Below are positions 1,427 to 11,911 of a stretch of 61,427 bases of DNA, in pieces. A model generated the notes under the pieces. That model made no database searches, had not been told where the DNA came from, and saw nothing but the letters and a program-made list of their open reading frames with translations. The position numbers and the translations under genes were made by a program. The DNA is from Candidatus Moranbacteria bacterium UBA2206 (lineage in GTDB: Bacteria; Patescibacteriota; Minisyncoccia; Moranbacterales; UBA2206). The first letter of the stretch is position 1. Each line of letters begins with the position of its first letter. The stretch spans positions 1 to 61,427 of the forward strand of contig DCUU01000065.1 of the NCBI GenBank assembly GCA_002328565.1, given 5' to 3'.

Positions 1427-2527
1427 TCATTCCCCCATTTTTTCCAACTCTTCAATCAGCCTTCTTTGTTCACGACTAAGTTTTTTTGGAATGCGCACAA
1501 TTATTTTCACCAGATGATTGCCCCGACCTCGGCCGTGCACATCAGGCACACCTTTTTCTCTGATGCGAAAAGTTTCACCAGATTGAGTTCCAGCCGGAAT
1601 TTTCAAGATTAAATTTCCCTCGATGGTTTCAATCTCAATTTCTCCGCCAAGTGTGGCACACGAAAAACTGATTTCTTCGGTGCTCAAGATATCATTATTG
1701 TGTCTGGTAAATTTTTTGTGATTTTTGACCCGAACCAAAATATATAAATCACCTGAGCGCGCACCTTTTCCACCAGCTTCACCCGCGCCTTGCATGGAAA
1801 TCGTTTGACCACTAGCAATTCCAGCGGGAATATTTATCTCTATCTCTTGTTCCTTTTTGATTCGGCCATCACCTCCACATTTAGAACATTTTTTCTCATA
1901 AGACTTTCCTTCTCCCAGACAGTCTGGACAAGTTATCACCTGAGAAAAAGAACCAAAAAAACTGCGCGTATTTTTTTGCACCTGTCCTGCACCGTGACAA
2001 GTCGAACAAGTTTTGATGCTGGAACCCGGTTCTCCACCAGATCCATCGCATTTGTCACACACAGCGCTTTTATATAAATTTATTTTTCTTTTCGCCCCAC
2101 TCACCATTTCAGAAAAATCTATCTCAACATCTACCTGAATATCCTGCCCGCGTTTTTGTTTTCGGCTTCTCCCACCACCAAAAACATTGGAAAAAATATC
2201 CTCAAAATCTGTTCCGCCAAATTCGAAACCGCCCGCGCTTTGGCCGAAATCGAAGCCAGAAAAATCAAAACCACCAGCACCCTGACCTTGCCCAGAAAAA
2301 CCACCTCCACCGCCCTGATCAAAAGTCTTGCCAAACTGGTCATATTGTTGGCGCTTGGACTTATCCGAAAGCACTTGATAGGCCTCGTTTATTTCTTTGA
2401 ATTTTTTTTCGTCTCCACCGGTTTTGTCAGGATGATGTTTGTGAGCCATTTTTCGATAGGCCTTTTTTATCTCATCATCCGATGCACCCTTAGAAACACC
2501 GAGAATTTTATAGTAGTCTTCTGACAT
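1427..2527 (-). CDS. dnaJ: molecular chaperone DnaJ
   Basis: J-domain HPD (HKHHPDK), G/F-rich linker, four CxxCxGxG repeats ([32 protein letters not shown]). Confidence 0.95.
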
Positions 2528-7201: not shown

Positions 7202-7768
7202 TCAAAAATTATTCCCTCTAAATTTATTCCGCTGTTGATATAATCTTTCCGTAAAACCTCCTTGCTTCATAAATTCATTGCTGAGTTTTTGTAGTTGCTT
7301 ATCCAAGAGATAATTTGTTTGATGAATAAGACAAATAATCATATTAGCTGCAGATTCAGAATTTTCAAGATAAGTCGCATAGGACAAATTAGACCTATTT
7401 TTATCATAAACCAAATTTCTCACCATTTTTGCTTTTGGATTTTCTTTCGTCCATAATTCTAATTTATTTTGACGCAAAAAATCCTCATAATCCAAAAGTA
7501 ATTCTTCCAGGCTCGCTCGCGCTACATTAGTCAATTTTATTTCTGTTTTCTTTGAGGTTCCAGAAGCTTTGCTTCCTTCCGCAATATTTTGCCTTCCAGA
7601 CCGTGCTGCTTGTTCCATCTGATCCTTGGTACGACTTTTCCAGTTTATATATTTTTGACAAAATTCAATAGTGAAATCGCAAACTAAGGTTGCCGACTTA
7701 AAAGATTCTAGGTTTCGATATCCGCCATGCGTAAAAAATAATTTTTCTTGATTTGTCTTATTTGTCAT
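7202..7768 (-). CDS. four-helix-bundle protein with suffix domain (23S rRNA intervening-sequence protein family)
   Basis: Motifs SATLVCDFTIEF, QAARSGRQNIAEG and NVARASLEELLLDYEDFL. Likely start at ATG 7768; the ORF extends to 7810 through a TATAAT-containing stretch. Confidence 0.75.
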   Translation of the reverse strand: MTNKTNQEKLFFTHGGYRNLESFKSATLVCDFTIEFCQKYINWKSRTKDQMEQAARSGRQNIAEGSKASGTSKKTEIKLTNVARASLEELLLDYEDFLRQNKLELWTKENPKAKMVRNLVYDKNRSNLSYATYLENSESAANMIICLIHQTNYLLDKQLQKLSNEFMKQGGFTERLYQQRNKFRGNNF

Positions 7769-7810
7769 ATTCGACTTATAGGACTTATAAACTTCTTTAT
7801 TATACCACAA

Positions 7811-7845: not shown

Positions 7846-9792
7846 CTATTCCTTTTTCTCACCTTCTTCCTTCTTCTCCTCAGTCTCCGCATCCTTCACT
7901 TCCGGTTCCGCCTTAGCCTCGCCTTCTTTTGACGCTCCGCCCGCCGATGAGGCGGGTTCTCCGGTTGCTCCTGGCGCTGGTTGCTCTGGTTGCGAAGCCT
8001 TGTAAAGTTTCTCGCCAATCTTTTGCGCTTCTTGTGACAATTCTTCGCTGGCTTTTTTGATGGCTTCGATATCATCACCGTCCTTAACTTTTTTCAAGGC
8101 TTCAATTTTTTCTTCGACTGGTTTCTTTTCGTCGGCTGTGATTTTGTCGCCAGCTTCGCGAATCGCTTTTTCGGTGGTGAAGATTAGGGTGTCAGCAATG
8201 TTTTTCGTTTCCACCACTTCTTTCTTTTTCTTGTCTTCTTCCGCATGAACTTCCGCGTCTTTTTTCATTTTTTCCACTTCTTCTTTGGAAAGTCCAGAAG
8301 AACCTTCAATTCTGATTGATTGTTCTTTGCCGGTAGCTTTGTCCTTAGCTTTGACACTCAAGATTCCATTAGCATCGATGTCAAAAGTCACTTCTACTTG
8401 CGGAATGCCTCGTGGAGATGGTGGAATACCATCTAAAATAAATCGACCGAGCGTTTTGTTGTCAACGGCCATTTCTCGTTCACCTTGTAAAACATGAATT
8501 TCTACGGATGGCTGATTGTCAGCGGCGGTGGAAAATATTTGTGATTTGGCAGTCGGCACAGTGGTGTTTCGATCAATTAGCGGTGTTCGCACGCCACCCA
8601 TTGTTTCAATTCCCAAAGTTAGCGGAGTGACGTCCAAAAGAAGCACATCTTTCACATCTCCTTGAAGCACACCACCTTGAATAGCGGCGCCCAAAGCCAC
8701 CACTTCATCAGGATTAACTGTAAGATTAACTTTTTTTCCAAAAAATTCTTCGACTGTTTTGATGACAAGTGGCATCCTAGTCATCCCCCCCACCATCACT
8801 ATCTCATTAATATCCTTCGCTTCTAGTTTTGCATCCGCCAATGCTTTTCTGGTTGGCTCAAGTGTTTTCTTTACTAAATCCCCCACCAATTCTTCCAATT
8901 TAGCCCGAGTAATTTTCATCACGAGATGTTTTGGACCATTAGCGTCAGTTGTGATGAAAGGTTGATTAATTTCAGTGTCCGCCGCGGTGGAAAGTTCTAT
9001 CTTGGCTTTTTCTGCTGCCTCCTTGATTCTTTGCAATGCCAAAGAATCATTGCTCAAATCAATGCCTTCTTGTTTTTTGAATTCCGCAATTATCCAGCTG
9101 ATTATAATCTGATCGAAATCGTCTCCACCAAGATGCGTGTCGCCATTAGTTGATTTCACTTCCACCGTATCATCGCCAACCTCCAAAATGGAAATGTCAA
9201 AAGTTCCACCACCAAGGTCATAAACCGCAATTTTTTCATCTTTCTTTTTATTGAAGCCATAGGCCAAAGCGGCGGCTGTCGGTTCATTGATGATTCGTCG
9301 CACTTTTAGTCCGGCAATTTCTCCCGCTTCTTTGGTAGCCTTTCTTTGCGAGTCATCAAAATAGGCTGGCACAGTGATCACCGCTTCTTCGATTTTTTCT
9401 CCCAATTTTTCTTCGGCGTCTGCCTTAAGCTTAGAAAGAATCATCGCAGAAATTTCTTGCGGGGTATATTCTTTATCACCCATCAAAACTTTTACGCCAC
9501 CATTGGCTTTGACAATTTTATATGGCATCAATTTCAAATCTCTTTGCACTTCTTCATCTTCGAATCCACGACCAATCAAACGCTTGATTGAATAAAGAGT
9601 GTTACCAGAATTTGTCACTGCTTGGCGCTTCGCCAAAAGCCCAACCAATCTTTCGCCAGACTTTGAAATAGCTACCATTGACGGCGTAGTTCTCGCTCCT
9701 TCTTTGCTTTCAATTATTGCCGGACTTCCACCCTCTACGATTGCCATTGCGGAATTGGTTGTACCAAGATCGATTCCTAATATCTTGCTCAT
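7846..9792 (-). CDS. dnaK: molecular chaperone DnaK
   Basis: [25 protein letters not shown]. The ORF-track start at 9813 is a TTG; the ATG at 9792 gives [10 protein letters not shown]. Confidence 0.97.
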
Positions 9793-9862
9793 ATATTTTT
9801 TGCCAGTGGACAATGATCAAAGATCAATGAACAACAGCTTTTTTAATTTTATTAATATTACC

Positions 9863-10756
9863 TTACTCCACCGCCACTCTTGCCACTCTAATTACTTTAT
9901 TATTAATTTTATACCCTTTCATCAAAACCTTTCTCACTTTATTTTCAGATATTTCCTGTTCACTATCTCCTGATTCCTGTTTTACAGCTTCCATAAAACT
10001 TGGATCAAATTTATCGCCAATATTCACTTCTATATCTAATACACCATAGCCTTGCAAAACTTTTTCCAATTGTTTTTGAATATGCATAATTCCTACTACC
10101 CAACCACCGTCTCTTTGATCTTCAGGAATATGATCCGTCGAAGCATGAAAGTTATCCAGAATTGGAATGAGCTCTGAAATCAAATTAACATTAGAAAAAG
10201 CAATTAAATCTTTTCTTTCCTCTGTTTGTCTTTTTTTATAATTTTCAAAGTCCGCCATACAACGCTTCCAGCCCTCAAGAGAATTTTTTAATTCTAAATA
10301 CTCCTTAGCTCTTTTAATTGTTTCTTTTTTATCTTTCGTAAAATCATTATCACCAAATTTTTCCACTGCCTTGTCAAAATCCAACCACTCATATTCTTGA
10401 TGTTCATGAGATAACTCTATCTCTCCATTTTTATAATATGCAATAAATCTCAAGCCTTTTCCGCCAATCTTAATTTTTTCTTTTCCAAACTCGTATTCTC
10501 GATCATATTTATTTTCAAAATCAAAGGCATAAATTATTGGACCAAGTTCAACTTCAATCCCTAATTCTTCCATAATTTCCCTTTTCATAGCAACTTCAAT
10601 ATTTTCCCGACAATCAATATTCCCCCCTGGCAGATCATACTCTCCAGCCTTAATCGAATCATTTTCTGATCTTTTAATAATCAAAACTTTCCCTTCTTGG
10701 TTTATAATCACCGCCTTGACTGTTAAACTAAAAAAATCTTTTTTTGTTTTTTCCAT
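9863..10756 (-). CDS. grpE: Nudix hydrolase domain fused to nucleotide exchange factor GrpE
   Basis: N-terminal Nudix box GGNIDCRENIEVAMKREIMEELGI. C-terminal GrpE motifs ADFENYKKRQTEE, FDPSFMEAV, GYKINNKVIRVARVAVE. Sits between hrcA and dnaK. Confidence 0.85.
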   Translation of the reverse strand: MEKTKKDFFSLTVKAVIINQEGKVLIIKRSENDSIKAGEYDLPGGNIDCRENIEVAMKREIMEELGIEVELGPIIYAFDFENKYDREYEFGKEKIKIGGKGLRFIAYYKNGEIELSHEHQEYEWLDFDKAVEKFGDNDFTKDKKETIKRAKEYLELKNSLEGWKRCMADFENYKKRQTEERKDLIAFSNVNLISELIPILDNFHASTDHIPEDQRDGGWVVGIMHIQKQLEKVLQGYGVLDIEVNIGDKFDPSFMEAVKQESGDSEQEISENKVRKVLMKGYKINNKVIRVARVAVE

Positions 10757-10761
10757 AATTT

Positions 10762-11514
10762 TTATTTTAAAAATATTACTCCGCCTTCCACTATAGAAAT
10801 TATTACAATCGAACTGCCCAAAAGTTTTCGGGCATAATCCAATAGCGACTTGTTTTTAGCATATTTCATCCTCTTGGGTCCGACAATCGCCAAGATTCCT
10901 CTTTCGCCTTCTTTGGTCGTATATGGACTCACTACCATTGAACAATTAGAAATCTCTTTGATCGGATTTTCTTTGCCGATAAAAATTCTGGTTTCGCCGT
11001 CTTTGATTTTCGAAAGAATCGTGTCCACATTTTCATCGATATAATCCAGCGCTTCGGCAATTCGACAGAACTCATCCACATTTTGAAATTCCGGATTTTC
11101 CAAAAGTTCGCCGATTCCAAAATCATAAAATTCTTTTTCTGATCCACTGATTGCCAGGCTTCCACTGAAAGACGATAGGAGTTTGGCCGCTGTGCGAGAA
11201 ATTCTTTTATTTTGCGCCTTGAGCTTCAAAACTTCCGTTTGCAGTTTTTTCTGATCCGTCAAACTCATTTTTTGATCTGTCATAATGCTTTCCACAAAAA
11301 ACCGATATCCTTTGTCAGTTGGGATGCGTCCGGCGCTGATGTGCGGTTGATGCAAAAATCCTTTTTCTTCCAATTCCGCCATATCATTTCGAATCGTAGC
11401 CGAACTTACTTTCAAATCATATTTGTCTTCCAAAACTTTTGAGCCAACAGCAACAGCCGAATTGGTATATTCTTCAATCACCGCCGCTAAAATTTTCTTG
11501 AGTCTGTCGTTCAT
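10762..11514 (-). CDS. hrcA: heat-inducible transcription repressor HrcA (short, 250 aa)
   Basis: N-terminal winged-helix region SSATIRNDMAELEEKGFLHQPHISAGRIPTDKGYRFFV. A CIRCE operator lies upstream. Confidence 0.9.
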   Translation of the reverse strand: MNDRLKKILAAVIEEYTNSAVAVGSKVLEDKYDLKVSSATIRNDMAELEEKGFLHQPHISAGRIPTDKGYRFFVESIMTDQKMSLTDQKKLQTEVLKLKAQNKRISRTAAKLLSSFSGSLAISGSEKEFYDFGIGELLENPEFQNVDEFCRIAEALDYIDENVDTILSKIKDGETRIFIGKENPIKEISNCSMVVSPYTTKEGERGILAIVGPKRMKYAKNKSLLDYARKLLGSSIVIISIVEGGVIFLK

Positions 11515-11619: not shown

Positions 11620-11646
11620 TTAGCACTCGTCAAGTCCGAGTGCTAA
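11620..11646 (-). promoter_or_regulatory. CIRCE operator (perfect consensus)
   Basis: TTAGCACTC-GTCAAGTCC-GAGTGCTAA. Confidence 0.92.
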
Positions 11647-11722: not shown

Positions 11723-11793
11723 TGGGGAATAGCCAAGCGGTAAGGCAACGGGTTCTGATCCCGTGATCGGGGGTTCGAATCCCTCTTCCCCAA
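11723..11793 (+). tRNA. tRNA-Gln (anticodon CUG)
   Basis: Acceptor TGGGGAA/TTCCCCA, anticodon arm ACGGG-TTCTGAT-CCCGT, T arm GGGGG-TTCGAAT-CCCTC. Confidence 0.9.
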
Positions 11794-11911
11794 CTAGATA
11801 CCAGCCATTTTTTGCAAACTCTTGCAATTTTTTTTGTTTTATGATAATTTGCAATATCGATTATTTTAAATAGAAAATAAACCCAGCACCTTAAAACTTA
11901 AAGGAATTGCC

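Follow-up and report, generated by a model that had tools for sequence, protein, structure and literature searches.

Few co-chaperones are known to be as uniform in architecture as the nucleotide exchange factor GrpE. In the solved DnaK-GrpE complexes the β-domain of GrpE opens the nucleotide cleft of DnaK, and the N-terminal end of the long GrpE helix lies beside the DnaK substrate-binding domain (SBD) (PMC10803776). The disordered tail of GrpE, which is the part replaced in the protein described below, enters the DnaK substrate groove and promotes client release in both Escherichia coli and Mycobacterium tuberculosis, a controlling role that has been established only recently (PMC12915176, PMC10803776). 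A term search of a 2025 review on GrpE-like exchange factors yielded no fusion to an enzyme. A precedent for an accessory domain on GrpE is provided by Anabaena All4144, where, according to a preprint (bioRxiv 10.1101/2025.04.14.648684), the additional domain is a DNA-binding helix-turn-helix rather than an enzyme, in a lineage unrelated to the one considered here. The gene reported in this study lies in a stretch of 61,427 nucleotides from Candidatus Moranbacteria bacterium UBA2206 (assembly GCA_002328565.1, contig DCUU01000065.1, positions 1 to 61,427), hereafter the window. It consists of a single open reading frame (ORF) of 297 codons plus a stop codon (9863-10756, minus strand, from the ORF list), with an ATG start and no internal stop, and encodes a Nudix hydrolase domain joined to the N-terminal end of a GrpE.

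Both domains, first recognised in a reading of the sequence alone, were recovered by hidden Markov model scans at scores above the Pfam cut-offs. NUDIX (PF00293) covers residues 12-135 (E 3.5e-17, 63.1 bits against a cut-off of 21.1), while GrpE (PF01025) covers residues 141-296 (E 2e-34, 119.1 bits against 25.8) and profile positions 14-163 of 165. A sequence search of the PDB paired the N-terminal half with the MutT-related protein 3grn and the C-terminal half with the GrpE structures 4ani, 3a6m, 8gb3 and 1dkg. An AlphaFold2 model was built with an alignment of 114 sequences and its secondary structure was assigned by DSSP; the mean predicted local distance difference test (pLDDT) score is 88, with most of the Nudix domain above 90. 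About seven residues precede the Nudix domain, which adopts an α/β/α fold extending from residue 8 to 133 (10358-10735; all segments of the protein lie on the minus strand), as defined by Pfam, the model, Foldseek and a profile search against the PDB. In the DSSP assignment its last helix (127-133) is separated from the long GrpE helix (138-188, 10193-10345) by a linker of four residues (134-137, 10346-10357). The long helix comprises 51 uninterrupted residues, aligns with the GrpEs of E. coli, Geobacillus kaustophilus, Thermus thermophilus and M. tuberculosis, and matches E. coli GrpE from approximately residue 40 onwards in BLASTP. It is followed by the helical bundle (residues 190-236, 10049-10189), identified by BLASTP to E. 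coli GrpE and modelled as helices 190-208 and 218-236, and by the C-terminal β-domain (residues 239-296, 9869-10042), delimited by the modelled strands and the Pfam match and containing the invariant G281 and Y282. The GrpE motifs quoted in the sequence-only reading are all present, with ADFENYKKRQTEE at residues 168-180, FDPSFMEAV at 250-258 and GYKINNKVIRVARVAVE at 281-297. Long helix, helical bundle and β-domain together make residues 138-297 a complete GrpE of the canonical form.

The whole ordered part of canonical GrpE (E. coli 1DKG, G. kaustophilus 4ANI, T. thermophilus 3A6M and M. tuberculosis 8GB3) is matched in the fusion, which also shares its DnaK-contact residues, operon position and control by the heat-shock repressor HrcA and its operator, the controlling inverted repeat of chaperone expression (CIRCE). 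The two differ at the N-terminus, where canonical GrpE has a disordered tail and the fusion a folded enzyme domain of 125 residues. In the plain GrpEs of the same clade, 31-76 K/E-rich residues stand ahead of the WKR..ADFENYKKR motif; the Nudix domain takes the place of this tail, and the helix is kept. The proposal that the enzyme replaces both the unstructured and the long-helix portion of the GrpE N-terminus thus holds for the tail but not for the helix, which is present at full length. The fusion lacks the tail with which GrpE competes for the substrate groove of DnaK, an accessory trait rather than one that defines the family. In M. tuberculosis GrpE, residues R64, R73, K74 and R75 contact subdomain IA of the DnaK nucleotide-binding domain (NBD) and the SBD (PMC10803776). 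These align to R165, K174, K175 and R176 of the fusion, each at least 90% conserved in 114 orthologues. G222, invariant in the same set along with the GrpE motifs, aligns to the glycine of the E. coli "VEGIE" segment, which we take to be G122. The junction is conserved as well, K143 being invariant and E140, A150 and L154 at least 90% conserved. As a member of the GrpE family, the fusion is expected to homodimerise and to accelerate the release of adenosine diphosphate (ADP) from DnaK.

Of 5.8 billion proteins searched, 616 proved to be relatives, among them a protein identical to the window fusion (P0001) in public assemblies. All of the best 120 of these 616, drawn from NCBI, JGI, ENA and Logan assemblies, contain both Pfam domains within 280-320 residues, at 45-100% identity, and at least 124 clusters from independent assemblies carry the Nudix-GrpE fusion. 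Scanning GTDB with one genome per species revealed 19 species representatives in which Nudix and GrpE share one ORF (36-63% identity), and the two halves diverge together (Mantel r of 0.47, a value reached in 0 of 500 permutations). Since the same continuous architecture recurs across independent assemblies and species, a frameshift or missed stop, for which inspection of the raw reads had been proposed, is ruled out by the comparative data without recourse to reads. On these sequence comparisons, the fusion is confirmed as real and conserved, and no artefact.

The survey of candidate phyla radiation genomes that the sequence-only reading called for shows that Moranbacteria and related Patescibacteria carry the same architecture, all named sources being labelled Moranbacteria/Moraniibacteriota, Parcubacteria, Paceibacterota or "Patescibacteria group". 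Some metagenome-assembled genome (MAG) labels among loci L001, L003, L004, L009, L013, L016, L019 and L021 ("uncultured Bdellovibrionales", "Bathyarchaeia archaeon", "Fimivivens") would place the fusion outside Patescibacteria. They conflict with the GrpE tree and the operon context and were not used as evidence of occurrence; judged by both, these labels are probably wrong and the loci nest in Moranbacteria-like Patescibacteria. The G+C content of the fusion loci is 35-54%. The GrpE clade, represented by 49 species, comprises 19 with Nudix-GrpE, 2 with another fusion and 28 with plain GrpE. Within 5 kb around grpE, no GrpE-only relative has a Nudix gene adjoining grpE that could represent an unfused precursor; stand-alone Nudix genes near grpE were seen in one GrpE-only locus (L045, a weak match ~4 kb away) and in one fusion locus (L022, ~4.5 kb away). 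A neighbour-joining tree of the GrpE domains (158 columns, no support values) interleaves fusions with plain GrpEs. For gain versus loss of the fusion, the paralogy of Nudix types in tandem proteins, described below, is the firmer sequence evidence. The architecture is common in the clade and is hit automatically by Pfam, as one of the doubts raised in the sequence-only reading had supposed, but it is not recognised as such: database names read "nucleotide exchange factor GrpE", "molecular chaperone GrpE" or, once, "nucleoside triphosphatase". No description of a Nudix-GrpE fusion was found in open-access papers and bioRxiv, in keeping with the earlier statement that no characterised example was known. 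The component families are known; their combination is undescribed.

The Nudix box of the fusion reads G45-x5-E51-x7-R59-E60-I61-x-E63-E64-x-G66-I67 and fits the consensus GX5EX7REUXEEXGU. It was correctly reported to be complete, although it occupies residues 45-67 (10556-10624, minus strand, located by translation and by conservation in orthologues) and not 45-68, ending one residue earlier. G45, E51, R59, E60, E63 and E64, like R103 and W124, do not vary among 114 orthologues of 48-87% identity; E118 is invariant in an alignment of 18 Nudix sequences and at least 90% conserved in the 114 orthologues. The box is also retained in divergent fusions of the types termed B and C below. The description of the domain as catalytically plausible, which would have failed had the box glutamates varied among orthologues, is sustained by this conservation, and the domain is predicted to be an active pyrophosphohydrolase.

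Several comparisons bear on the subfamily of the fused domain. Against the NCBIfam equivalogs it scores 48.2 bits for NudI (NF012016, cut-off 95) and 45.8 bits for MutT (TIGR00586, cut-off 97.9). Its profile finds 3grn as the best PDB match (E 9e-25), then MutT, NudI, the CTPase NudG, BdRppH, NUDT18 and NUDT1 at 1e-15 to 1e-10; hydrolases of diadenosine tetraphosphate (Ap4A) follow well below the MutT-like enzymes, at 1e-9 to 3e-6, and ADP-ribose pyrophosphatases rank low, at 3e-8 or worse. Foldseek gives a probability of 1.00 to many Nudix structures, the best being 3grn, NudI, BdRppH and an Ap4A hydrolase, with target-normalised TM scores of up to 0.79 (3grn 0.79; Aquifex Ap4A hydrolase 3i7u 0.78-0.79). 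The closest protein by sequence, profile and fold is thus 3GRN, an uncharacterised "MutT related protein" from Methanosarcina mazei, with NudI, NudG, MutT and BdRppH behind it at 1e-10 to 1e-13. With 3GRN, NudI, NudG/CTPase, MutT and BdRppH the fused domain has in common a complete Nudix box and the α/β/α fold; unlike them, it is covalently attached to GrpE and contains a variable inserted hairpin at approximately residues 81-98. Asymmetric Ap4A hydrolases of the Nudix family have a conserved Tyr some 17 residues past the box, and Nudix ADP-ribose pyrophosphatases a Pro some 15-16 residues past it. Y84 of the window protein stands 17 residues after I67, but Tyr is only ~30% conserved at this position, and residues 82-83 are Asn and Lys; at the positions addressed by these two rules (Tyr +17, Pro +15) nothing is conserved in the Nudix alignment. 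Assignment to the ADP-ribose pyrophosphatases was rejected on the missing Pro and the low structural rank. Assignment to MutT or NudI was likewise rejected, as the domain resembles both and, scoring below the equivalog cut-offs, belongs to neither. Its resemblance to MutT/NudI/NudG/RppH-type nucleoside triphosphate (NTP) pyrophosphohydrolases makes an NTP-type substrate the likelier one.

Three types can be distinguished by sequence among the fused Nudix domains: A (the window, L001-L011 and L013), B (L012, L014, L016, L019 and L021) and C (L015 and L022). Scores within types are 73-123 bits, whereas scores between types are 18-57 bits and no better than those against a free Nudix from the genome of L022. 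For type B, the best fused matches (70-78 bits) and the best free matches (63-71 bits) score alike. Types A and C each abut the GrpE helix in different lineages. Metagenomic Nudix-Nudix-GrpE proteins of 438-450 residues (P0121, P0123, P0133, P0079 and P0114) occur in both tandem orders, P0133 being A-C-GrpE and P0079 C-A-GrpE; because types A and C are both present in single proteins, in either order, they are true paralogues. Searched exhaustively, the type A domain retrieved only 4 clusters at E<=1e-30; its closest free kin are tandem di-Nudix proteins of ~270-295 residues, which lack GrpE. The window protein has one Nudix per chain, in contrast to the two of the di-Nudix and Nudix-Nudix-GrpE proteins. 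By analogy, the A/C tandems suggest that the Nudix unit works as a pair, which the GrpE dimer would recreate. Kin of the fused Nudix were also seen in a metagenomic protein of 1157 residues (P0141) with the architecture Nudix-Nudix-RelA/SpoT(synthetase)-...-RyR, possibly a hint that the subfamily is linked to alarmones of the guanosine tetra- and pentaphosphate, (p)ppGpp, type.

In two GTDB Moranbacteria MAGs (L026:4572-5501 and L034:3156-4148), a non-Nudix domain of ~150 residues stands ahead of the GrpE helix, and the same arrangement is found in ten database clusters of 301-326 residues (P0268-P0278). The genes occupy the same hrcA-[X-grpE]-dnaK slot. The N-terminal domain carries an invariant P-x-L-x-G-S-L-G-L...G...D-x-D signature, its Pfam match to the nucleotidyltransferases (NTases) remains below threshold (18 bits against a cut-off of 21), and the AlphaFold2 model (pLDDT 81) has as nearest Foldseek neighbours TM1012, the lincosamide adenylyltransferase LnuA, ANT(2'')-Ia and the MenT1 toxin. 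On the basis of the invariant GS...DxD motif and the Foldseek matches, the domain was assigned as a Pol-β-fold NTase. NTase-GrpE and Nudix-GrpE thus share clade, slot and point of attachment at the N-terminal end of the long helix, but the NTase is predicted to transfer a nucleotide and the Nudix of the window fusion to hydrolyse one. The occurrence of different Nudix paralogues, tandems and an NTase at the same GrpE site argues for selection on the arrangement; these comparisons suggest that the repeated attachment of nucleotide enzymes to the GrpE tip reflects selection. The NTase module also occurs in a metagenomic protein of 490 residues (P0302; 60% identity over 169 residues), joined to an HhH-GPD DNA-glycosylase domain, and is therefore mobile. 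P0302 was considered as a glycosylase-GrpE fusion and rejected, as it contains no GrpE and shares only the NTase domain.

The sequence-only reading had placed the single 297-residue ORF in the grpE position of an hrcA-grpE-dnaK operon, and the Pfam assignments of its neighbours bear this out and add its orientation on the minus strand. The operon begins with hrcA, the gene for the heat-shock repressor (10762-11514, minus strand; HrcA PF01628, 82 bits), which ends 5 nucleotides before the start of the fusion ORF, and dnaK, encoding the partner Hsp70 (7846-9813, minus strand; HSP70, 842 bits), lies downstream on the same strand. The dnaK ORF as listed opens with TTG (9813); the ATG at 9792, from which the conserved Hsp70 N-terminus runs, is probably the authentic start codon. 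A CIRCE operator without mismatches, TTAGCACTC-N9-GAGTGCTAA (11620-11646, no strand assigned), is located ~105 bp upstream of hrcA; the pattern search gave 2 matches where 0.01 were expected by chance. It follows from this perfect operator that HrcA would govern synthesis of the fusion, along with that of DnaK, as part of the heat-shock response; gene order and operator place the gene at the grpE position of an hrcA-grpE-dnaK operon controlled by CIRCE and HrcA. The other match, with one mismatch (2586-2612), lies ~60 bp upstream of dnaJ (1427-2527, minus strand), which stands apart from the dnaK operon; the dnaK system is thereby split into two HrcA-controlled units ~5 kb apart. The scan of the 61-kb window revealed no second grpE and no second Nudix. 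Across loci, hrcA is directly upstream in 21 of the 21 cases where an N-terminal domain is fused to GrpE, and dnaK follows the fused grpE wherever the sequence reaches, occasionally with an inserted gene between. One such gene, in a close relative of the window with 60% identity (L001:3731-4144), encodes, judged from its translation, a small alpha-crystallin/Hsp20-like protein between nudix-grpE and dnaK. In the window, a 202-residue ORF (7202-7810, minus strand) is found directly downstream of dnaK on the same strand, and a tRNA-Gln (CUG) gene, predicted by ARAGORN on the strand opposite that of the operon (11723-11794, plus strand), lies shortly upstream of the CIRCE/hrcA promoter.

We regard it as moderately probable, on balance, that the protein is a bifunctional GrpE, a normal exchange factor carrying an active Nudix. 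GrpE being a parallel homodimer, the stalk would bear two adjacent Nudix domains at its tip, where they would mimic the tandem di-Nudix relatives. In the DnaK complex they would be located beside the SBD and ~75 Å from the nucleotide cleft, an estimate that uses the helix length (51 x 1.5 Å) and the published complexes. The substrate of the Nudix would be a nucleotide of the NTP or polyphosphate type, either damaged or non-canonical (d)NTPs or an alarmone (Ap4A, (p)ppGpp), and not the ADP leaving DnaK. Fusion would provide heat-shock-induced, 1:1, dimer-scaffolded expression of Nudix activity with the chaperone machine, and the tail-mediated release of substrate by GrpE would necessarily be altered or lost. 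Ap4A crosslinks to DnaK, GroEL and ClpB and is degraded by Nudix enzymes (PMC10148737), and it is an attractive candidate substrate, one unsupported by the present data. Several points weigh against this bifunctional reading. Catalytic competence is suggested by conservation only, and the substrate class is a weak deduction given that the best relative, 3grn, is itself uncharacterised and that no NCBIfam Nudix equivalog reaches its cut-off for the fused domain. With a predicted TM score of 0.63, the AlphaFold2 model does not reliably orient the Nudix against the helix. The lack of a second grpE is established for the 61 kb. As 28 of the 49 related species do without the fusion, GrpE as such can function in the absence of the extra domain, and pure convenience of co-expression in streamlined genomes may account for it.

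The sequence-only reading had instead proposed that ADP, or a regulatory nucleotide, is broken down by the tethered Nudix once expelled from DnaK, so that exchange becomes irreversible or tied to nucleotide pools. Both activities concern nucleotides and reside in one polypeptide, the catalytic residues of the Nudix are invariant, and some Nudix enzymes act on nucleoside diphosphates. This mechanism is nevertheless disfavoured, and we consider it very improbable: the Nudix occupies the SBD-proximal tip of a 51-residue helix, whereas it is the β-domain that engages the NBD cleft (PMC10803776), free ADP diffuses far faster than a tether could exploit, the nearest relatives are NTP pyrophosphohydrolases and not NDP-ases or ADP-ribose pyrophosphatases, and at the same site sister GrpEs carry an NTase, which is incapable of scavenging ADP. 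The position of the domain invites a different explanation, in which the Nudix replaces the substrate-release tail as a regulatory module, nucleotide binding or hydrolysis at the tip altering the engagement of the SBD and gating client release. It accounts for a domain located exactly where the SBD-binding tail emerges (PMC12915176, PMC10803776), for a conserved junction and a four-residue linker, hence rigid coupling, for the recurrence of nucleotide-binding enzymes at the GrpE tip and for the reported crosslinking of Ap4A to DnaK (PMC10148737). It is less easily reconciled with the invariance of the full catalytic box, which suggests turnover over mere sensing, and with the many clade members in which a plain tail suffices; the contact between Nudix and SBD is a putative one. 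We therefore judge this explanation possible but unlikely.

Neutral union of the two genes would require neither catalysis on the chaperone nor regulation: a housekeeping Nudix joined grpE in a streamlined genome and was kept since both products are needed, the two parts having no functional interaction. Patescibacteria genomes are small, heat-shock operons tolerate insertions (such as the hsp20 between grpE and dnaK in L001), and the 28 of 49 related species without the fusion are compatible with such an accident. Arguing against it are at least two paralogous Nudix types (A and C) that abut the helix in different lineages and occur in both tandem orders, the presence of type B and of an unrelated NTase at the same site, the absence of an adjoining Nudix gene as unfused precursor in GrpE-only relatives, the short conserved junction and the co-divergence of the two halves, which together render it improbable. 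That a sequencing or assembly error joined two genes, or that a stop codon was missed, has in its favour only the prior that metagenome assemblies contain errors. Four independent sources give the same continuous architecture in 120 of the best 120 clusters, 19 GTDB species share the fusion at 36-63% identity, the frame contains no stop and the junction residues are conserved, leaving this explanation a negligible probability. Beyond the bifunctional GrpE that we favour, it may be conjectured, though we hold it rather unlikely, that in Moranbacteria and their relatives the tip of the GrpE stalk is a docking platform that holds interchangeable nucleotide enzymes (the three Nudix types, Nudix tandems or the LnuA/ANT/MenT-like NTase) against the DnaK SBD, with catalysis forming a step of chaperone cycling. 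Client release could then be gated by a stress nucleotide or, alternatively, the enzymes could act on DnaK, on bound clients or on their nucleotide-linked modifications. If true, this would be a mode of Hsp70 regulation without known counterpart.

The fusion is limited to uncultured lineages; it is conserved, lies at a mechanistically topical site and recurs with different enzymes. The plain "GrpE" label of annotation pipelines hides its enzyme domain. The fusion supplies a functional context for a MutT-like Nudix subfamily whose sole solved relative is 3GRN, and it hints at a connection between stress nucleotides and Hsp70, where a link between Ap4A and DnaK has been long suspected and never resolved (PMC10148737). 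With the tail swapped for a hydrolase here, and for another Nudix or an NTase in sister lineages, these GrpEs constitute a natural experiment on the tail position.

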